Below are positions 2,620 to 57,475 of a DNA stretch of 64,000 nt, in pieces. The position numbers and the translations under genes are program-made. This DNA is from Patescibacteria group bacterium (lineage in GTDB: Bacteria > Patescibacteriota > Patescibacteriia > UM-FILTER-42-10), in contig JBAYKW010000001.1 of NCBI GenBank assembly GCA_041664365.1, forward strand, positions 7,168-71,167, in the 5' to 3' direction. The notes under the pieces were generated by a model, which ran no database searches, was not told the origin of the DNA, and saw only the letters and a program-made list of their open reading frames with translations. Each line of letters begins with the position of its first letter. The first letter of the stretch is position 1.

Positions 2620-5175
2620 ATGATTACAATCAATCAGGAACAAATTGAAAAGATTTCGGGATTGTCAGCCGAAGCCGTGTTGGAGAAGCAGACAAAGTAC
2701 GGTTACAATGAGCTGAATTCCCAGAAGAAACATAATATATTTCAAATCCTTTTTGAAGTTATCAAAGAGCCGATGCTGGCTCTTTTGATTTCCATCAGTG
2801 TTATCTACCTCTTCTTAGGCGAGCAAAAAGACGCCTTTGTTTTAATGTTCGCGGTGGTGGGAGTAGTCGGCATCACACTGTTTCAAAAACGCAAAACAGA
2901 AAGAGCGCTAGACGCTTTAAAAAATTTATCCAGTCCTCGTGCATTGGTGATTCGTGAGGGAAAACAAATCAGGATTCCCGGCAGAGATGTGGTAAAAGAA
3001 GATATTATGGTTTTGGCCGAAGGAGACAGGGTGCCGGCGGATGCAGTAATTCTTTCCAGCGTTAATCTGCAGGTAGATGAATCATTATTAACCGGTGAAT
3101 CGCTTTCGGTAAAGAAAACGCAATATGAAGGGCAGGATCTGCCGAAAAGACCCGGTGGGGATAATCTGCCCTACGTTTATTCAGGCACGCTGGTTGTTCA
3201 AGGTAAAGCAACAGCCAGAGTTGAAGCAATCGGCGCGGATACGGAAATGGGGAAAATCGGCAAGGCGCTGGATTCCATAAAAGAAGAGGATACCCTACTG
3301 CAGAAAGAAACCGCCCGGCTGGTGCGTTATATCGGCAGTATCGGTTTGTTGCTTTGTGTTTTAATATTTCTGATCTACGGGCTGGCAAGAGGGGAATGGA
3401 TTGCCGGTTTACTGTCCGGTCTGACTTTAGCCATGGGAATACTGCCGGAAGAGTTTCCGATTGTTCTGTTAATATTTTTAGCCCTAGGAGCATGGCGGAT
3501 ATCAAAGAGAAATGTTTTGACCAGGCGCATGCCGGCGATTGAGACTTTGGGAGCCGCTACTGTTTTATGTGTCGACAAAACCGGAACAATCACACAGAAC
3601 AGAATGTCTTTAAATACTATTTATGTTGATGGTGAATACTATGACGTCGCTGAAAAAAAATCATTGCCGGAAAAATTCCACTCACTTTTAGAATATGCCA
3701 TGCTGGCCAGTCAGGAAGACCCATTTGATCCGATAGAACAGGAAATTAAAAAAGTAACTGTGGGTCTTCTTGAAAATACCGAGCATATCCATAAAGCATG
3801 GCAATTGAATAAGGAATACCCATTTACTAAAGAACTGCTTTCCATTGCGCACGTTTGGGAATCCAAAGATATGAAGGAATACACTGTCGCCGCCAAGGGC
3901 GCTCCGGAAACAATCGCTGATCTGTGTCATTTTACGACGGAAGAATTCAAAGAGCTTGAGGAAAAAATTAATGTTTTGGCCAATCGCGGTCTTCGGCTTC
4001 TCGGAGTGGCGAAGGCGACTTTTGAAAAAACAAATCTGCCTCAATCACAACATGATTTCAAATTTGAATTCGTGGGACTGCTCGGATTCTTAGATCCAAT
4101 CCGTACGCAGGTACCGGGCGCATTGCAGGAAGCATACAGCGCAGGTATTCGTGTAATTATGATTACCGGTGACTATCCGGGAACTGCCAGTTTTATTGCC
4201 CGGCAGATCGGGTTGAAAGATCCGGATAATTTTATCACCGGTCCACAGCTGGAAGCGATGAGCGCGGAAGAATTGAAAATTAAAATTGATTCGGTAAATG
4301 TTTTTAGCCGGGTTGTACCGGAACAGAAGCTGGCGATAGTCAATGCCTTGAAGGCACATGGTGAAATTGTGGCGATGACCGGCGACGGGGTAAATGATGC
4401 CCCTGCTCTGAAGTCGGCAAATGTCGGTATCGCTATGGGTAAAAGGGGAACAGATGTTGCACGTGAAGCCGCTTCACTTGTTTTACTGGATGATGATTTT
4501 ACTTCAATCATCCAGGCGGTAAAGCGGGGGAGGATTATTTTCAAAAATCTAAAAGAGGCCATATCGTATATCTTCGCGGTACATGTGCCGATCGCCGGAC
4601 TGGCATTTTTACCAGTTCTGTTTGGCATGCCGGTTATTCTCCTACCGATTCATATTACTTTCTTGGAATTGATTATTGATCCTGCCTGCACGATTGTTTT
4701 TGAAGCGGACCAGGCGGAAAAAGATGTTATGAAGCGCCACCCTCGGAATTTGAAAGAGCCATTATTTAATCGTAAGGCACTATTTTTTAGTCTAATTCAA
4801 GGGTTGAGTGTATTGATGATTACATTTGCGATTTATTTAATTACTTTAAACATTGGCAGAGGAGAACTTGAGGCTAGGACGCTGACATTTATCAGCCTGG
4901 TTGTAGGTAACTTGATTATGATTGCGGTAAATCTGTCCTGGTCGGAAAGTATCTTGAGTATTTTCAAATCTTCCAATCGCATAATGTGGTTGGTAATATC
5001 CGGCACGCTTGCTTCGTTAGTATTGATTTTTTCAGTTCCCTGGTTGACTGATCTGTTTCATATGTCCAGGATGAATTTGCAGAATGTGGTTTTGATTCTG
5101 ATATTTGGTATAGTTGTTGTATTCTGGTTTGAGCTCATGAAGAAGATTTTCAAGAGAAAGTATAAGGAGATTTAA
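2620..5175 (+). CDS. P-type (E1-E2) cation-transporting ATPase, P2/Ca2+-Mg2+-like
   Basis: Motifs TGES, CVDKTGTITQN (DKTGT phosphorylation site) and MTGDGVNDAPAL. Multiple transmembrane segments at both ends. 851 aa. Confidence 0.85.
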   Translation: MITINQEQIEKISGLSAEAVLEKQTKYGYNELNSQKKHNIFQILFEVIKEPMLALLISISVIYLFLGEQKDAFVLMFAVVGVVGITLFQKRKTERALDALKNLSSPRALVIREGKQIRIPGRDVVKEDIMVLAEGDRVPADAVILSSVNLQVDESLLTGESLSVKKTQYEGQDLPKRPGGDNLPYVYSGTLVVQGKATARVEAIGADTEMGKIGKALDSIKEEDTLLQKETARLVRYIGSIGLLLCVLIFLIYGLARGEWIAGLLSGLTLAMGILPEEFPIVLLIFLALGAWRISKRNVLTRRMPAIETLGAATVLCVDKTGTITQNRMSLNTIYVDGEYYDVAEKKSLPEKFHSLLEYAMLASQEDPFDPIEQEIKKVTVGLLENTEHIHKAWQLNKEYPFTKELLSIAHVWESKDMKEYTVAAKGAPETIADLCHFTTEEFKELEEKINVLANRGLRLLGVAKATFEKTNLPQSQHDFKFEFVGLLGFLDPIRTQVPGALQEAYSAGIRVIMITGDYPGTASFIARQIGLKDPDNFITGPQLEAMSAEELKIKIDSVNVFSRVVPEQKLAIVNALKAHGEIVAMTGDGVNDAPALKSANVGIAMGKRGTDVAREAASLVLLDDDFTSIIQAVKRGRIIFKNLKEAISYIFAVHVPIAGLAFLPVLFGMPVILLPIHITFLELIIDPACTIVFEADQAEKDVMKRHPRNLKEPLFNRKALFFSLIQGLSVLMITFAIYLITLNIGRGELEARTLTFISLVVGNLIMIAVNLSWSESILSIFKSSNRIMWLVISGTLASLVLIFSVPWLTDLFHMSRMNLQNVVLILIFGIVVVFWFELMKKIFKRKYKEI

Positions 5176-48329: not shown

Positions 48330-49139
48330 ATGAATAAACAAAATCAAACATACCTTCAAAGGGCAGAAAAAGCGAAAAACCCGGTGGCTGTAAAATTACT
48401 CCAGCTCATGGGGCAGAAACAAACCAACCTCGCGCTGGCGGTGGATGAGCCGGAGGCCGATTTGGTTTTAAAACTGGCGGACACTATCGGACCGGAGCTT
48501 TGCCTGTTAAAAACGCATATAGACATCATTGAGGGTTTTAACGAGGGATTTATCACAGAATTATCAAACCTCGCTAAAAAGCACAATTTTTTAATCTTTG
48601 AGGACCGGAAATTCGCTGATATCGGCAATACAGTCAAAATGCAGTATGGCGGGGGGATGTATAAAATAGTGGAATGGTCTGATATGGTAAATGCGCATAT
48701 TGTCCCGGGTCCCGGAATTATTGAAGGGCTAAAGGAAGTGGCTGAGGCAAGCGGAAAGGAGCGGGCATTAATCCTGCTGGCACAGATGAGTTCCAAAGGA
48801 AATCTGGCGACGGACGAATATACCGAAAAGGCGGTAAGGATGGCGCGCGAGTACGCTGATTTTGTGATCGGATTTATCGGGAACGGGGGAGATGTGAAAG
48901 AACTGAGCAAACTGACTGGACTAAACAGTGAAGAGTTTATTATAATGACTCCGGGTGTTAAACTGGGTGGCGGGGATGATGCGCTGAAACAGCAATACAC
49001 CACACCATCCGATGTAATAACCGCCGGTTCTGATATCATCATTGTCGGACGGGGGATTTACGGCGCGGACGATCCGGTTGCGGAAGCCAAGGAGTACAGA
49101 CAAGTCGCGTGGGACGCATATTTGAAAAGAATTGGATAG
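48330..49139 (+). CDS. pyrF: orotidine 5'-phosphate decarboxylase
   Basis: TIM-barrel OMP decarboxylase, type 2. 269 aa. Confidence 0.8.
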   Translation: MNKQNQTYLQRAEKAKNPVAVKLLQLMGQKQTNLALAVDEPEADLVLKLADTIGPELCLLKTHIDIIEGFNEGFITELSNLAKKHNFLIFEDRKFADIGNTVKMQYGGGMYKIVEWSDMVNAHIVPGPGIIEGLKEVAEASGKERALILLAQMSSKGNLATDEYTEKAVRMAREYADFVIGFIGNGGDVKELSKLTGLNSEEFIIMTPGVKLGGGDDALKQQYTTPSDVITAGSDIIIVGRGIYGADDPVAEAKEYRQVAWDAYLKRIG

Positions 49140-51657: not shown

Positions 51658-51676
51658 TTTTTAGGTTTATTAGAAA

Positions 51677-52993
51677 TCAGCAACCATTGCGAGTACTACG
51701 AATGTAGGACGATGCAATCCTGATACTTTTTGACTTAAGTGCATTATCCCTAGGATCTTTTTTTGTCTCACCTTTTTTATTAATATTCTTATAATTTGTA
51801 AGACTTTCTGTAAATGTCGGCATTCCAATTTTAACTAGGGTATCTTTAGTTACATCACCATTAGTAGGCTTAAGTCCATATTTTTTTAATACTTTCTTTA
51901 TTACCGATTGAAGGCTATCGTCTAAAACAGAGTAATGTGATTTTTCATAATTAGTATAATAGTATGTTGCTCCCCAATTATCAACTCGAGTTTTCAGATA
52001 GTTGAGTGTTTTAAATAGACCATTTCTGTTTACTATTTTTATATCTTTAATAATTTTCTTAAATGCATTTGGCACAGGATATATTTTACTGCCTCGGAAT
52101 TTGATTCCAAGAAATTCAAAATCACTTCTCTCTATAGTGCAATACTTGTTATTATCCTTTGGTTTACTTATTGATAATGGATGTAATTTAAGTCGTAGTT
52201 TGTTCTCAATAATTTCTTTAGCAACTTTATGCATTTTTACTGCCTCTTCTTTTGTCTTGCACATAATAATAAAATCGTCTGCATAACGTACCATTTTATA
52301 ATTATGTTTTATCATTATCTCATCTAGTGGGTATAAATAAATGTTTGCAAATAATGGTGAAAGTATCCCTCCTTGAGGTATTCCGCCCTCTTTTGTCACG
52401 AAATTATCATATTCTCCAATTAAAATAAGATCATTCTTGTTACCTATCTCATTAATCAATGCACCTTCAATCAACTTATTTATTGATTTATCAGGTAAAC
52501 AAGGAAAAACATAATTATTTAGTAGATTAGAGACATCTATAGTATCAAAAAATTTTCTAATATCTGCATTATACACCCATTCATAACCGTGTTTTTTATA
52601 AAGTACAATTCTATCAACAGCATCTTTAACACGCTTTTTTTTAATGTATGCAAAACTTACAGGATTATCAATGTTATATCTTACTTTGATATAGTCAAAA
52701 ATTACAAGTTCAATTGCTTTTTGAACAACTCTGTCACGAACTGCGGGTATTTTGATAGCTCTAGTTTTCGATCCTTTCTTTAAAGGATAGCCTCTTAATG
52801 CTAAAAATTTGTATTTATTGTTAAGTAGATCTTTTCTAATAAAATTAAGCTGATTTTTTAAGTCATTTTCGAAATCCTCTATTGTCTGATTATCAATGCC
52901 TTTAGATTTATCTCTATGCTTTATTGAATCCCAAGAAAGTCGCAAATTATTTTGAGTTGCGACTTTTTTAAGTAGATTATTCGTTTTTTTCAT
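51677..52993 (-). CDS. group II intron-type reverse transcriptase/maturase (no endonuclease domain)
   Basis: RT motifs TRAIKIPAVRDRVVQKA, GIPQGGILSPLFANIYL and RYADDFIIMC (YADD). Maturase X-like NWGATYYYTN. 438 aa. Confidence 0.75.
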   Translation of the reverse strand: MKKTNNLLKKVATQNNLRLSWDSIKHRDKSKGIDNQTIEDFENDLKNQLNFIRKDLLNNKYKFLALRGYPLKKGSKTRAIKIPAVRDRVVQKAIELVIFDYIKVRYNIDNPVSFAYIKKKRVKDAVDRIVLYKKHGYEWVYNADIRKFFDTIDVSNLLNNYVFPCLPDKSINKLIEGALINEIGNKNDLILIGEYDNFVTKEGGIPQGGILSPLFANIYLYPLDEIMIKHNYKMVRYADDFIIMCKTKEEAVKMHKVAKEIIENKLRLKLHPLSISKPKDNNKYCTIERSDFEFLGIKFRGSKIYPVPNAFKKIIKDIKIVNRNGLFKTLNYLKTRVDNWGATYYYTNYEKSHYSVLDDSLQSVIKKVLKKYGLKPTNGDVTKDTLVKIGMPTFTESLTNYKNINKKGETKKDPRDNALKSKSIRIASSYIRSTRNGC

Positions 52994-53052: not shown

Positions 53053-53215
53053 TAGTGCAGTCTTAGAGTTGGTAACATTCAGGCTGATGGTTATAACCAT
53101 TAACATTATTGTCAGCATTCTGAGACTTAAGCTACTTAGTACCTTGTAGATTGAATTATACCGATTCATCGTGAATTGGCAAATATTGTCTATTTTGGTG
53201 TTTAAATAAGCAGCT
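53053..53215. repeat. tandem direct repeat copy A (~158 bp)
   Basis: Differs from copy B at only 3 positions (tta/atg and a/g). Confidence 0.7.
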
Positions 53216-53372
53216 AAATTTACTCGGCCGCCGATATCCGCCAAAATGCTATCGGCTTCCGGCGCTATTTTTCGCCATTCCATGTTCTTTGCTGTTAATA
53301 ATAATTCTTGTTCCGCCAATCCGGAGGCTTGGGCGCTACAATTAGCGGTTCCAGAATAAAGCAAGTTACATG

Positions 53373-53535
53373 CAGTCTTAGAGTTGGTAACATTCAGGCT
53401 GATGGTTATAACCATTAACATTATTGTCAGCATTCTGAGACTTAAGCTACTTAGTACCTTGTAGATTGAAATGTACCGATTCGTCGTGAATTGGCAAATA
53501 TTGTCTATTTTGGTGTTTAATAGCATATACAAAAT
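53373..53535. repeat. tandem direct repeat copy B (~158 bp)
   Basis: Near-identical to 53053-53215. A 157-bp more GC-rich spacer separates the copies. Confidence 0.7.
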
Positions 53536-53656: not shown

Positions 53657-54091
53657 CTAGCAATCCTTCTTCTCATCTTTTTCCGACTGCGCCAGTAAAT
53701 ACTCCAAGACCTTGTATTCCGAAAGTTCTTCTACATTCGACTTTTTAATTAATCTATCGAAGTATAAAACTAAAAACAAAACAATGAAGAGTGATATAGT
53801 AACATACCAATTCATAGAATGAATGACTTCATTCAAAGCATTTAATAGTAAACTACCAGTTATACCTAGAGCGAATCCAAATGTAACTGATACCAACGTT
53901 TGTCTATCTTGTTTGATATTATTCAAAGCATTTTGCAATCCGATATTTTCTATATCAAAAGCTGCTATGTATTTTTCAACTACAGCATTTTGTTGATTAG
54001 CCGAAAGTTTCTGCCACAACTTCTTATTGGAGCGCTTTAGTCTTTTAGTAATTTCTTTCCTAAGGTCATTTTCCCTCTTTTGTAAATTCAT
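53657..54091 (-). CDS. small membrane protein (2 TM), last gene of defence-like operon
   Basis: 144 aa with a charged N-terminal half and two hydrophobic helices. Confidence 0.45.
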   Translation of the reverse strand: MNLQKRENDLRKEITKRLKRSNKKLWQKLSANQQNAVVEKYIAAFDIENIGLQNALNNIKQDRQTLVSVTFGFALGITGSLLLNALNEVIHSMNWYVTISLFIVLFLVLYFDRLIKKSNVEELSEYKVLEYLLAQSEKDEKKDC

Positions 54092-54100
54092 AATGATAAT

Positions 54101-54646
54101 CTAATTTTTAATTTTCTTCGCGATCCATGCTCCGCCCCCAATAAGTATTCCTAAGCCTACAGCCCAATCCGTGAATGATCCTGAATTGTTTGACGAATTA
54201 GTGCTTGCAGAATTTGTCGGGGTAATCTGATTTGCTAAAGTCGCTGCACCTTTTACTTCGCCTTGATCATCAGTTTGTACAGAAGCCTCATCAAGTTCTC
54301 TTTGTAAATTTTCTTTTTCTTCTTCCAGTCTTTTGATTTCCGTTTGCTGATTTTCGTACTCAGTTTTGGCATTTGAATAATCAGCGTAAGAATAATATGT
54401 CCTACCATTAAATTCATAGGTTATTGGTGTTGGGGCGGTGTATGTTTCTGCCTCTTCTTCTGTTCCATTACATTCTGGATAATATGGCGCACATGTAGCG
54501 GATAATGGCGTGCCATCACAACAACCACAACCACATACCCCATCATGATGTGAACAGCATCCACTTCTTGCATCTGCATTATATTGTGGCAATAACAAAA
54601 ACAACCCAAATATGAAGATACTTAGGATATAATGCACTTTTTTCAT
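54101..54646 (-). CDS. secreted Cys-rich, coiled-coil protein with C-terminal membrane anchor
   Basis: Signal peptide; CCSHHDGVCGCGCCDG…C…C; EIKRLEEEKENLQRELDEA coiled coil; C-terminal hydrophobic GLGILIGGGAWIAKKI. Confidence 0.45.
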   Translation of the reverse strand: MKKVHYILSIFIFGLFLLLPQYNADARSGCCSHHDGVCGCGCCDGTPLSATCAPYYPECNGTEEEAETYTAPTPITYEFNGRTYYSYADYSNAKTEYENQQTEIKRLEEEKENLQRELDEASVQTDDQGEVKGAATLANQITPTNSASTNSSNNSGSFTDWAVGLGILIGGGAWIAKKIKN

Positions 54647-54789
54647 TGTGATTTGCCCAATAGTTAGCTATATTTCAACACTACTCCAACTTATCCTAGA
54701 AATCAAGAAAACCGCTTTTGGAGGATGCTTAATTAACCTCTGTACAGACACAATATTTCTGTTTAGGAACCATCATGTAGTAATCTGTG

Positions 54790-55761
54790 TCAAATCAATC
54801 TACTAACAGAAAAACCGTCTACTTTTTTCGTGCTCTTGTTTATTTTAATACTTATATTTTTAACTACACTTGGAAGTATTTCATCAACAGATTTATCAAG
54901 ATTTATTGAATCACCTGAACAGGTAATACTAATTGCAATGCTACAATTCACATACACGTAATAGTACTTTTCATCAGCTTTATATATATAATAATTCCAT
55001 ATAAATACATCATTGTATTCATGATCAACAATATTTTCAAGTTGTATATTTCTGTCTATATTAACTGCGAAGAATAATTCTTCAGGGTATACAAGATTAT
55101 TTATATCATTTAATCCTATCTCCTCAATCATCAGCGATAAGTATTGCTCATTAATAAATTCTATCTTTTCAGCATAATCTGTTAAAAATTTATCTAATAA
55201 ATTATAAAAATAAACATCAGATTCTTTTCTTAATTCTTCATGTAACTCATCTGAATCACCAAAAGCATTTCTATCATTTGAGATAAAACATAAATCATTA
55301 CATTTATTGCGAGCAAATTTAACTTCCTCCCATATTATGAAATCTCGAAATCCAATGTCACTATACTTTTTAGTAGAGTGGAAAGGAGGTTTATTATTTA
55401 ATGATCTACTTATAATTTGTGGGACTAGTACAGGACAGCTTAAATTATCAATAATCTCTATATTCTTATTTTCTACTATCTTTAGCAACCTTTTTTTGTA
55501 TCCAGTTACTTCATTATTTTTAAGCGTAATTTCGCTTGATGTAGATATTTTCAATTTCTTTTTGAATTCTTTCAATGACTTTTCTATATCTTTACAGTCA
55601 TCAATTTCTTTACTGAAGTTTTTTATTGTTTCAGATATCACAATGTCAGGAATAAATAGTTTCGATTTAGTTTTTTTTAAATACGCAAATAATGCTTGGA
55701 ATCTTGGAGTATCAAGATAGTAATTATCTTTTAATTCAGTTGAATCAAGAATTATATTCAT
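54790..55761 (-). CDS. PIN-like (DUF4935-type) domain protein
   Basis: Conserved acidic positions in MNIILDSTEL, IPDIVISETIKNF, IGFRDFIIWEEV and CFISNDRN fit a PIN-like nuclease fold. 323 aa. Confidence 0.4.
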   Translation of the reverse strand: MNIILDSTELKDNYYLDTPRFQALFAYLKKTKSKLFIPDIVISETIKNFSKEIDDCKDIEKSLKEFKKKLKISTSSEITLKNNEVTGYKKRLLKIVENKNIEIIDNLSCPVLVPQIISRSLNNKPPFHSTKKYSDIGFRDFIIWEEVKFARNKCNDLCFISNDRNAFGDSDELHEELRKESDVYFYNLLDKFLTDYAEKIEFINEQYLSLMIEEIGLNDINNLVYPEELFFAVNIDRNIQLENIVDHEYNDVFIWNYYIYKADEKYYYVYVNCSIAISITCSGDSINLDKSVDEILPSVVKNISIKINKSTKKVDGFSVSRLI

Positions 55762-55781
55762 TAAAATATTATTAAATTATA

Positions 55782-56888
55782 CTAAATTTGGGAGAATCCC
55801 AAATCCTTTCCAATTGGCTTGAGCACCCCATCATTTACAGTTGCAATACCAAGATCTAGCGAATTAATAAACTGTATGTATTTATCATCACGCGGTTCAC
55901 GAGAAGGTGTAAGTATTTTGTATTGATCACTGAATTTAAGATTTTTTTCTTTTTTAAATTTGTTAATCTCAAAATAGTCATATTCATATAATTGAACAAT
56001 TGCTTTCCTTGCCTGTGATCTAAAATTTCTATTTTCAGTACTTTTTACTTCAAATAAGAATGAGCGTTTTTCATCATGTGCAAATAAATCAACAAATTCA
56101 TTTGATAAGGTTGCATATCCTTTTTTTCTAAAAATATCGATTAGATTTTGCAAAACTGAATAGTGGGATGATTCTGCCCTCGCAAGAATCTCATTATCTC
56201 TTGTTATTATAGAATGTGGCTTAGTGATAATTCTTTCATTAATTTCATTTATAAACCTTAATGACGCTGCGTGACGCAGTGTCTCAGTCGCATTATGTAC
56301 TTCATAAAAATCAGATGGCTTATCCTGTATAATATTTCCTCTTGTTGAGTGTCCAGAATATAAATATAATGATCTCTGTCTGAATAATATTTGTTTCGCA
56401 ACCTCTGGTGAAACTTTTGAGAAACTACCCATTCGTGGGAAGCCTTCTATTTCCGATACTGGTATTGAGTTTTCAACCAGTTTATCAATTAAATGAGCTG
56501 TCTGTTCATTATTATTTGGATTAGGGGATTCCCAAGTTGCTGGATCGGGTATTTCACCAAATAAATATATTTCTGTTAGTGGAACTAATAATGGCCATCT
56601 ATTTTCATTATGTTTAACTTCGTAATGCCATAAATAATTATCTTTAATTGAAAAATGAAACCCAACGACCCCTATTCCTATAATCCCGGATTTTGCATTT
56701 CGAAATGCAGAGTTATTTGAGCCAGTACTATGGATAAAAAAGATATCACCAGTCTGTATTTTCCCCCATCTTTCCTTTAAATGTGATTCCAATCCCCATG
56801 TCATGTACTTAAAAGCAGTCAGCCAATGCTCAGGTGGACCTGTAAATCTAAATAATTGTTTTGTGCTTATAGCTGAACTTAAATTCAT
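55782..56888 (-). CDS. PUA-like (EVE/ASCH-type) domain fused to PD-(D/E)xK nuclease - candidate modification-dependent restriction enzyme
   Basis: Start taken at MNLSSAIS (overlaps the MazG stop as TAAtATG). N-terminus FRFTGPPEHWLTAFKYMTWGLES…GDIFFIHSTG…IIGIGVV is PUA-like. C-terminus FVDLFAHDEKRSFLFEVKST…QLYEY carries a D…EVK nuclease motif. Confidence 0.45.
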   Translation of the reverse strand: MNLSSAISTKQLFRFTGPPEHWLTAFKYMTWGLESHLKERWGKIQTGDIFFIHSTGSNNSAFRNAKSGIIGIGVVGFHFSIKDNYLWHYEVKHNENRWPLLVPLTEIYLFGEIPDPATWESPNPNNNEQTAHLIDKLVENSIPVSEIEGFPRMGSFSKVSPEVAKQILFRQRSLYLYSGHSTRGNIIQDKPSDFYEVHNATETLRHAASLRFINEINERIITKPHSIITRDNEILARAESSHYSVLQNLIDIFRKKGYATLSNEFVDLFAHDEKRSFLFEVKSTENRNFRSQARKAIVQLYEYDYFEINKFKKEKNLKFSDQYKILTPSREPRDDKYIQFINSLDLGIATVNDGVLKPIGKDLGFSQI

Positions 56889-56889
56889 A

Positions 56890-57237
56890 TTACAAATTTG
56901 TATATTTTGTGTGTTTACCCTTTGCTTTGTCAATTGGATACTTTTCTTCATTCTTTTTAATCTTTTTCTCAAGCGCTTCTTCAATATCAATATTCAAATC
57001 ATTACTCATTAATAGCACCCAGTATAAAACATCCGCCAACTCTTCTCCAATATCCGATTTGTTTGTATCAATATATTTTTTTATCTCTTCATCATTCTTC
57101 CATTGGAAATGTTCCATAACTTCTCCTGCCTCAAGCATAAGCGATAATGCGACGTCTTTTGGATTGTGAAATTGTTTCCAATCTCGGGCATCCCTGAAAG
57201 CAATTACTTGTTTTATTAATTCTTCAATATTTTTCAT
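56890..57237 (-). CDS. MazG-like nucleotide pyrophosphohydrolase
   Basis: Motifs RDARDWKQFH…LMLEAGEVMEHF…EELADVLYWVLLMSNDLNID. Confidence 0.65.
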   Translation of the reverse strand: MKNIEELIKQVIAFRDARDWKQFHNPKDVALSLMLEAGEVMEHFQWKNDEEIKKYIDTNKSDIGEELADVLYWVLLMSNDLNIDIEEALEKKIKKNEEKYPIDKAKGKHTKYTNL

Positions 57238-57394
57238 ATAGTTTAAATAATGCTTATATATATAACAATCCTACGCCCATATTAGCCAATTATCAAGCTC
57301 TTTTTTGTTGAGGAAATAATAGCAAAATAACCATAAAACCTGGGGGCCGGGGCCACATGAAGGATGATAGAGAGAATCAGGATAAGACCCCCGG

Positions 57395-57475
57395 AATTAA
57401 TTCACTTATTTCAAAGAGTAACGGGATTGCTTCATCCTACATTCGTAGGACTCGCAATGGTTACTGCTATCTGTA
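57395..57475 (+). mobile_element. remnant of a second group II intron RT 3' end, inverted relative to the intact copy
   Basis: gggattgcttcatcctacattcgtaggactcgcaatggttactg matches the reverse complement of 51677-51722 (RT C-terminus …IASSYIR.TRNG). It abuts the miaA stop. Confidence 0.5.

Follow-up and report, generated by a model that had tools for sequence, protein, structure and literature searches.

We describe a block of five minus-strand genes, numbered 1-5 in the order of transcription, that lies in a 64,000-nucleotide (nt) stretch of contig JBAYKW010000001.1 from a Patescibacteria group bacterium (the window, to whose full length all coordinates refer). As judged from comparison of related loci, the conserved unit is formed by two of the five genes only: gene 1, coding for a MazG-like pyrophosphohydrolase, and gene 2, coding for a fusion of a putative modified-base reader with a PD-(D/E)xK nuclease. 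In the explanation that we consider best, and hold as a whole with moderate confidence, these two genes make up a cassette that moves horizontally among Patescibacteria (Candidate Phyla Radiation, CPR, bacteria), whereas genes 3-5, which encode a PIN_12 protein, a Cys-rich protein and a membrane protein, would be unrelated cargo of the same island of low guanine-plus-cytosine (GC) content.

The MazG/reader-nuclease pair and its relatives

By its sequence, gene 1 is a MazG-like protein closest to DCTPP1. In Pfam it exceeded the gathering score of PF12643 (MazG-like; 2.1e-18, 66.8 bits against a cutoff of 27), which supports the MazG-like assignment made in the first-pass annotation of this DNA, and it also matched PF03819 at 1e-8. 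The best match found by phmmer in the PDB was an archaeal pyrophosphatase (4qgp, 1.6e-20), followed by mouse and human dCTP pyrophosphatase 1 (RS21-C6/DCTPP1), which aligned over the full length at 1.1e-18 and have the C-terminal KYT(D/N)L in common with gene 1. The metal-binding residues E36, E39, E42, E66 and D69 were invariant across 62 gene 1 orthologues, with the EXXE...EXXD motif intact. DCTPP1 prefers 5-modified dCTPs and clears them from the nucleotide pool.

No family match was obtained for gene 2 in Pfam (E ≤ 0.01), NCBIfam, PHROGs or PADLOC, or in the PDB by sequence. Since the sequence libraries gave nothing usable, the protein was identified solely through structure prediction with fold search and through the architectures of its distant homologues. 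The AlphaFold model, based on an alignment of 50 sequences of 22-79% identity, had a predicted local distance difference test score (pLDDT) of 89.8 and a predicted template modelling score of 0.79. An earlier model from 32 close homologues had reached a pLDDT of 69.5, and the addition of 19 distant homologues raised it to 89.8; the fold assignments were identical in the low- and high-confidence models.

The N-terminal domain matched the folds of EVE proteins (PH1033, MJECL36), YTH domains, THYN1 bound to DNA containing 5-methylcytosine (5mC), VcaM4I, and the McrB N-domains of S. marinus and T. gammatolerans. Residues W31, H53, W87 and P99 of this domain were invariant, as was the motif QTGD-FF-HS...GIIGIG. 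The fold matches of the C-terminal domain were a XisH-like protein, AF1548, N.BspD6I, NucS, FokI, Can2, SdaI and Hjc. In the 50-sequence alignment D267 was invariant, and E280, K282 and Q299 were conserved in at least 90% of the sequences. The model and the alignment thus describe gene 2 as a PUA/EVE/YTH-like reader fused to an apparently active PD-(D/E)xK nuclease, and the fold search and the conserved motifs bear out the PUA/EVE-like and PD-(D/E)xK calls of the first-pass annotation. The two parts of a type IV restriction enzyme are both present, namely a domain of the PUA superfamily that could read a modified base, and a fused nuclease with an intact catalytic motif. As gene 2 had no Pfam match at E ≤ 0.01 and did not reach the gathering score of PF01878 (EVE), its N-terminal domain should be named PUA-superfamily/EVE-like and not a member of PF01878.

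A profile-free exhaustive search of 1.8 billion representatives revealed that the two domains of gene 2 occur separately in other proteins. When 71 distant homologues were scanned with Pfam, the most frequent companions were AAA_5 (the McrB-type GTPase; 20 proteins), HNH (at least 9) and MrcB_N (8), in some AAA_5-bearing proteins with MrcB_N in tandem; a few proteins carried DpnI_C, Mrr_cat or EVE, the last recognisable in one of the 71. In the AAA_5 fusions that were examined individually, the shared region was the N-terminal domain of gene 2, located where type IV enzymes are known to carry their reader of modified DNA.

The gene 2 family comprised 375 clusters at 90% identity in a database of 5.8 billion proteins, mostly from Patescibacteria. 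The top 120 clusters were 65-100% identical to the query, and the named taxa among them were Kaiserbacteria, Paceibacterota, Doudnabacteria, Minisyncoccia and other Patescibacteria. We gathered 94 related loci from genomes and metagenomes (designated below by L numbers), of which 74 unique ones, from Patescibacteria and at 30-79% identity, were evaluable for MazG adjacency; a single-sequence scan of genome contigs returned five loci, a number unusable as a prevalence estimate.

In 69 of the 74 relatives the nuclease gene had a MazG-like gene as its direct neighbour and shared its strand with it, and the gap between the two was about -1 to +14 nt in 65 of these 69 pairs. The order MazG-nuclease was found down to 30% identity (L103), and at 33% identity (L101) it was followed by a Schlafen-type helicase gene. 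At L099 (38% identity) the order was swapped to nuclease-MazG, beside HNH, DUF4007 and BrxC-like genes, and at L097 (43% identity) the swapped pair was followed by a helicase gene and RadC. The strongest comparative argument is that the adjacency survives this swap, which points to functional linkage rather than inherited synteny. The pairwise divergences of MazG and nuclease were also correlated, weakly but significantly (Mantel r 0.29, reached in 0 of 2000 permutations). A naturally disrupted partner was observed at L076 (1-381), where MazG is split, with residues 4-55 on the opposite strand and residues 63-115 on the same strand.

The genes flanking the pair differed in every lineage examined. 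In 16 of the 17 loci with enough flanking sequence the GC content of the module was below that of its flanks, by a mean of 6.5 points. Among the three genes downstream of the pair in 73 unique relatives we found HNH (6), C5 DNA methyltransferase (4), Schlafen-type helicase (3) and NYN (3) genes; Fic, HipA and the restriction enzymes HpaII, Eco47II, BsuBI and DpnI were further downstream genes. Restriction-modification (RM), toxin and CBASS-type (cyclic oligonucleotide-based antiphage signalling) genes dominated these neighbourhoods, so that the island and defence context, which the first-pass annotation had read from the window, holds in the relatives too. No relative of gene 2 was found in the scan of viral contigs. 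What emerges from these loci is an accessory cassette that is mobile and settles in islands of the defence type, and not a core gene pair.

Several neighbours recur within parts of the family. The slot right after the nuclease gene was heterogeneous; it held PIN_12 in the window only, and in 5 of 33 loci a 230-236-residue HNH family, whose members have a C-terminal HNH motif and are 44-48% identical to one another (for example L020 7116-7826, L028 2298-2993, L042 2006-2695 and L050 2617-3312). This family may define a MazG/reader-nuclease/HNH sub-variant. A Schlafen group 3/DUF2075-type helicase of 620-770 residues followed the pair in L074, L078, L079, L097 and L101, and RadC accompanied it in L059, L061/62, L065, L067/68, L069, L072, L073, L077, L080, L081, L083, L084, L086 and L097, either as the gene just ahead of MazG or, in L073 and L081, inserted between it and the nuclease gene. 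With the helicase, some variants may be three- or four-gene systems. The C5 methyltransferase genes were located at L011 8170-9474 (minus), L032 4533-5588 (minus), L035 1808-2788 (plus) and L038 3534-4580 (minus).

Proposed mechanism and its rivals

We favour, again with moderate confidence, a module that consists of a type IV-like restriction nuclease and a coupled pyrophosphatase for clearing the matching modified deoxynucleoside triphosphate (dNTP). The N-terminal domain of gene 2 would recognise a modified base, probably flipped out of the invading DNA, and the C-terminal domain would cut near the recognised base. The triphosphate that gene 1 hydrolyses would belong to this class of modified nucleotide too, with a 5-substituted dCTP as the likeliest substrate, and the enzyme would in this way keep salvaged or phage-made modified nucleotides off the host chromosome, sparing the host self-restriction. 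By depleting the precursor pool, MazG might also starve a phage that builds hypermodified DNA. Our data show the two folds with their catalytic motifs, the preserved adjacency, the setting in an island and the lack of genes 3-5 in relatives; that gene 2 depends on a modification, which base carries it and what MazG does are inferred. The binding of a flipped modified base is suggested by the likeness to SRA and EVE readers and to the PUA-superfamily endonucleases that act on DNA with 5mC or 5-hydroxymethylcytosine (5hmC). That MazG hydrolyses the triphosphate of exactly the base read by gene 2, as the two layers of a "pool and polymer" system, is a narrower and rather doubtful proposal, which we put forward tentatively.

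It is generally assumed that a type IV restriction enzyme calls for no self-protection, as its host is simply free of the modification. If the pyrophosphatase acts on modified dNTPs, this assumption would fail for organisms that salvage nucleotides, such as CPR bacteria. Modification-dependent restriction would then owe its self-immunity to the cleaning of the nucleotide pool, which would make a type IV enzyme safe in a nucleotide-scavenging host, and hypermodifying phages would be denied their building block. A simple and testable design rule would follow, in which a reader-nuclease is paired with the matching pool cleaner. In addition, about 375 clusters of "hypothetical proteins" in Patescibacteria, which current domain and defence databases do not recognise, would gain an annotation, and gene 2, with 368 residues, would be a compact candidate enzyme for the detection of modified DNA.

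Several observations weigh against the proposed mechanism. The reader domain stayed below every Pfam threshold for EVE, YTH and ASCH, and therefore its ligand cannot be read from family membership. The identity of MazG to the window protein varied between 44 and 83%, whereas that of the nuclease was steady at 67-78%, and the MazG alleles appear to have been reshuffled relative to the nuclease. An intact adjacent MazG was missing in five of the 74 relatives (four had none nearby and that of L076 was fragmented), which implies that the nuclease is not always lethal without MazG in cis. C5 cytosine methyltransferase genes within three genes downstream in 4 of 73 relatives would be awkward if generic 5mC were the target; in some cases they were accompanied by HpaII- or Eco47II-type restriction enzymes, and for this reason they probably belong to separate type II systems. 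The island itself contained no methyltransferase gene, and a crude motif scan of the window detected none. Finally, the identity of 65-79% among the top 120 clusters is unusually high for a defence gene, and RadC (JAB) was operonic with the pair in one clade, at 53-58% identity, and in about 15 relatives overall; both could point to a housekeeping role.

The rival that survives best is an abortive-infection sensor-effector, in which the PUA-like domain binds a free modified nucleotide produced during infection and the fused nuclease then degrades DNA indiscriminately. MazG would serve there as a second, dNTP-depleting effector, or it would buffer the signal by breaking down its nucleotide as long as cells are uninfected, setting an antitoxin-like threshold. 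Sensing of free N6-methyl-dAMP by a PUA-like domain has been demonstrated, and rare systems have a MazG-like effector beside the PUA domain (PMC12871103). The tight, stoichiometric coupling of MazG and nuclease would suit a toxin/antitoxin-like pair, and the retention of the pair through order swaps fits this rival equally well. However, neither the genes of the window nor the examined neighbourhoods included a HAD or calcineurin-like partner, the reader is most closely related to domains of DNA-acting enzymes of the McrB and HNH kinds, and its best structural matches include DNA-bound readers (THYN1 with 5mC DNA, VcaM4I, McrB-N). We regard the sensor-effector as unlikely.

A role in housekeeping hygiene or repair, with no anti-phage function, seems to us still less probable. 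MazG would rid the pool of non-canonical dNTPs, and the reader-nuclease, together with RadC and in some cases a Schlafen-type helicase, would incise the host's own DNA where a base is damaged or misincorporated, in CPR bacteria that rely heavily on nucleotide salvage. The direct operonic association with RadC and the strong sequence conservation agree with such a role, as do the SLFN-g3/DUF2075 helicase genes that come after the pair in several divergent relatives, the absence of copies from the viral contigs scanned, and the repair nucleases of the NucS and Hjc type among the fold matches. Nevertheless, the distribution is patchy, with a few hundred 90%-identity clusters among 5.8 billion proteins, the flanking genes vary among all lineages examined, the GC content is below that of the flanks in all but one of the 17 loci, and the neighbours are mostly RM, toxin and CBASS-type genes. 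The window, moreover, has neither RadC nor an SLFN helicase.

The island, its other genes and its flanks

Five co-directional minus-strand open reading frames (ORFs) had been announced in the first-pass annotation, and all were found at the positions given in Table 1. For gene 2 we took the ATG at 56888 as the start; the automatic ORF call runs further, to an upstream TTG within gene 1. The TAA-t-ATG junction of genes 1 and 2 is a likely site of their translational coupling. The remaining intergenic gaps were 20 nt (genes 2/3), 143 nt (genes 3/4) and 9 nt (genes 4/5); the TAAtATG junction described earlier was confirmed, but the gap ahead of the Cys-rich gene is not near-abutting. The candidate promoter of the pair is weakly supported, as promoter-like sites in the region were as numerous as expected by chance. 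Hairpins of the kind seen at the gene 2 stop codon are likewise no commoner in the region than chance would give; this one may lie where the two-gene unit ends. The region of about 51.5-57.3 kb has 26-34% GC, compared with about 44-45% in the remainder of the window, and is flanked by an argF-like gene with its terminator on one side and by miaA on the other; the reported placement beside miaA is thus correct.

Table 1. Genes, domains and signals of the low-GC island, in coordinates of the window.
Feature	Position	Strand	Description
Gene 1	56890-57237	-	MazG-like NTP pyrophosphohydrolase, DCTPP1/RS21-C6 type, 115 aa
Gene 2	55782-56888	-	Reader-nuclease fusion, 368 aa counted from ATG
Reader domain of gene 2	56355-56858	-	N-terminal, PUA superfamily (EVE/YTH-like), residues ~11-178; predicted
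Nuclease domain of gene 2	55815-56195	-	C-terminal, PD-(D/E)xK, residues ~232-358; predicted
Catalytic candidates of gene 2	D267 56088-56090; E280 56049-56051; K282 56043-56045	-	Also H242, Q299
Gene 3	54790-55761	-	PIN_12 (DUF4935) protein, 323 aa
Gene 4	54101-54646	-	Cys-rich protein, 181 aa
Gene 5	53657-54091	-	144 aa, two predicted transmembrane segments
Junction of genes 1/2	56886-56892	-	TAA-t-ATG, read directly from the sequence; gene 2 ATG 1 nt past the MazG stop
Candidate promoter of the gene 1-2 pair	57268-57296	-	TTGATA-17-TAGGAT, consensus scan; 31 nt upstream of the MazG start codon
Weak terminator-like hairpin over gene 2 stop codon	55784-55806	-	10 pairs, 3 G-C, T-rich tail; consensus scan
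Reverse transcriptase gene	51677-52993	-	Group II intron type, QGxxxSP motif

Gene 3 matched PF16289 (PIN_12, formerly DUF4935) over profile positions 1-172 of 172 (2.9e-21, 77.1 bits, cutoff 32), in agreement with the earlier PIN-like/DUF4935 call. It is a near-orphan, with five homologues, itself included, in the 5.8-billion-protein database. The two contexts of homologues that were examined (L095 and L096) were unrelated and lacked MazG, reader-nuclease, Cys-rich and membrane partners. Genes 4 and 5 had no significant family match in Pfam, PADLOC, NCBIfam or PHROGs. Hydropathy and Cys counts showed that gene 4 has an N-terminal hydrophobic signal or anchor, eight Cys in residues 30-59, a coiled-coil segment and a hydrophobic tail rich in Gly, and that gene 5 has predicted transmembrane segments at residues 65-84 and 89-117; their description as a Cys-rich protein and a membrane protein therefore stands.

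The first-pass annotation had joined all five genes into one novel defence operon, a proposal to which we now assign very little probability. The genes are indeed co-directional and close-set within one low-GC island, and a third nuclease partner is "not absurd", given that the slot after the nuclease gene often holds another nuclease in relatives (HNH in 5 of 33 loci, NYN in 1 of 33). However, tblastn of all window proteins found no homologue of the PIN, Cys-rich or membrane protein in the 94 loci related to gene 2, both examined PIN_12 homologues stand alone elsewhere, the downstream slot in relatives is heterogeneous, and the 143-nt gap together with a shift in GC content (26% in the PIN gene, 39% in the Cys-rich gene) divides the genes. 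Comparative genomics has, by these sequence comparisons, already largely refuted the five-gene operon, and three of the five flagged genes should not count as members of the system. A smaller sub-module of the PIN, Cys-rich and membrane genes was also rejected, since the two PIN homologue contexts that were examined lack such partners.

The reverse transcriptase (RT) gene downstream of the block had been described as part of an intact group II intron. The RT is of the group II type, and an inverted copy of its 3′ end does lie beyond the block, but the intron was not confirmed. The RT scored 196 bits against TIGR04416 (cutoff 300) and matched only generic RT models in PADLOC. No Rfam model of a group II intron RNA was found at E ≤ 1 in 48-60 kb, nor at E ≤ 0.1 in three loci of RT homologues, and the ~22 nt between the RT stop codon and the duplicated argF terminator leave no room for domains V and VI; on these grounds an intact intron was rejected. 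The inverted repeat is 75 nt long and 84% identical, with one arm at the 3′ end of the RT ORF (51672-51746) and the other (57398-57472) in the interval from the miaA stop codon to the MazG promoter region; it occurs nowhere else in the window. Both arms hold the hairpin TCCTAC-ATTC-GTAGGA, and the RT and the five genes all lie between the arms. The repeat could mark an edge of the island, or it could be what is left of another RT copy in inverted orientation.

Upstream of the RT, two direct repeats of 150 nt (53056-53205 and 53371-53520; 98% identical, spaced 315 nt) are present, and the proximal copy ends 63 nt before its start codon. The same layout was present upstream of RT homologues that are 48% and 44% identical: at L104 (2423-2585/2777-2938, ~160 nt, spaced 353-354 nt) the proximal copy ends 63 nt before the ATG of the RT at 3001, and at L110 (1893-2050/2277-2434, 158 nt, 97% identical, spaced 384 nt) it ends 66 nt before the ATG of the RT at 2501. 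The copies are 97-100% identical within each of the three lineages, which implies concerted evolution, and the repeat region of the window had no similarity detectable by blastn to the loci of the RT homologues. On the RT strand, each of the three lineages has a frame that stays open over more than one repeat unit; it extends from the distal repeat across the spacer and either enters the proximal repeat or crosses it. The unit lengths (315, 354 and 384 nt) are all multiples of three. The repeats may be a device for terminal redundancy or template switching; they loosely recall the rolling-circle synthesis of complementary DNA by DRT2 (PMC11100668).

A diversity-generating retroelement was rejected because the RT has the group II-type QGxxxSP motif and the mismatches between copies are not adenine-specific. 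An assignment to UG17/DRT10 (non-coding RNA, SLATT and RT) was also dismissed: the group II models fit the RT better than RT_UG17 does, and the gene 5 membrane protein has no family match and is not conserved beside the RT homologues. The L104 homologue lies ~1.5 kb from an orotidine 5′-monophosphate (OMP) decarboxylase gene (758-1486), as does the window RT from pyrF (48330-49139), a proximity that hints at an RT element that is syntenic and older in the lineage than the five-gene block. A further homologue, 48% identical (L106, 116-4345), has phage-like surroundings that include ParB-methyltransferase genes and a terminase of the Sf6 type, and the RT clade is thus also carried by viruses. 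On the far side of the RT, the 3′ end of the argF-like gene, with its terminator, is present twice as an 86-nt direct repeat (50152-50237/51569-51654, 86% identical). The 1.4-kb insert between its copies contains a 108-residue orphan ORF and a RidA/L-PSP-like gene whose GC content of 58% is far higher than the ~44% of the genome; the insert has the appearance of an independent insertion with att sites or a long duplication of its target.

Comparison with known systems

The statement of the first-pass annotation that the combination matches no named system holds for PADLOC-DB v2, in which genes 1-5 had no match at E ≤ 0.01. Among characterised systems, McrBC resembles the pair in its reader, as the N-terminal domain of gene 2 is homologous in sequence to N-terminal or internal domains of many McrB-like AAA_5 proteins. 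However, the island has no AAA_5 GTPase and no McrC and cannot be classed as McrBC; cleavage would fall to the fused PD-(D/E)xK domain, without NTP-driven translocation. With DCTPP1/PF12643 proteins gene 1 shares full-length similarity (1e-18), the EXXE...EXXD motif and KYT(D/N)L, but it is a minimal 115-residue version that is hard-wired to a nuclease gene.

In a preprint of 2026, PUA-Cal-HAD systems are reported along with rare variants composed of PUA, MazG-like and HAD components, in which the MazG-like protein replaces the calcineurin-like, dNTP-depleting effector (PMC12871103). The likeness consists in a PUA-like sensor combined with an NTP-hydrolysing enzyme, MazG-like in those rare variants. 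Pfam found no calcineurin-like or HAD domain in the genes of the window, and the examined gene tables of the relatives contained none, which sets the locus apart from PUA-Cal-HAD; furthermore, the PUA domain is fused here to a nuclease and not to a phosphoesterase, and MazG is a separate small protein.

Genes for MutT-type pyrophosphohydrolases adjoin SauUSI homologues according to a figure legend of Bell, Wolf and Koonin, who do not discuss the pairing mechanistically (PMC7641849). In both arrangements, a modification-dependent nuclease (in our case a predicted one) stands beside a small pyrophosphohydrolase of the nucleotide pool, but the folds are unrelated: Nudix versus all-alpha MazG, and phospholipase D (PLD)-helicase-DUF3427 versus PUA-PD-(D/E)xK. 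The MutT-SauUSI pairing hints that the principle may be general.

The closest comparison is with the modification-dependent endonucleases of the PUA superfamily, which include the EVE-HNH enzymes VcaM4I and TspA15I, the PUA-DUF3427-PD-(D/E)XK enzyme YenY4I and the predicted EVE-PD(D/E)XK proteins. Members of this group were shown to depend on 5mC or 5hmC (PMC6765204), and EVE-PD(D/E)XK and EVE-HNH type IV enzymes had already been predicted by Bell, Wolf and Koonin in 2020 (PMC7641849). Gene 2 differs from them in a reader too divergent for the Pfam EVE model, in a PD-(D/E)xK domain that lacks the DUF3427 middle domain, and in a family that is essentially confined to CPR bacteria. A near-obligate, coupled DCTPP1-like MazG partner is mentioned neither in PMC7641849 nor in PMC6765204, and a literature search for MazG or DCTPP1 in combination with EVE or type IV restriction turned up no description of such a pair. 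From its sequence relationships, gene 2 appears to be a new and highly divergent member of the known EVE/PUA-nuclease type, and its near-obligate MazG partner appears to be new.

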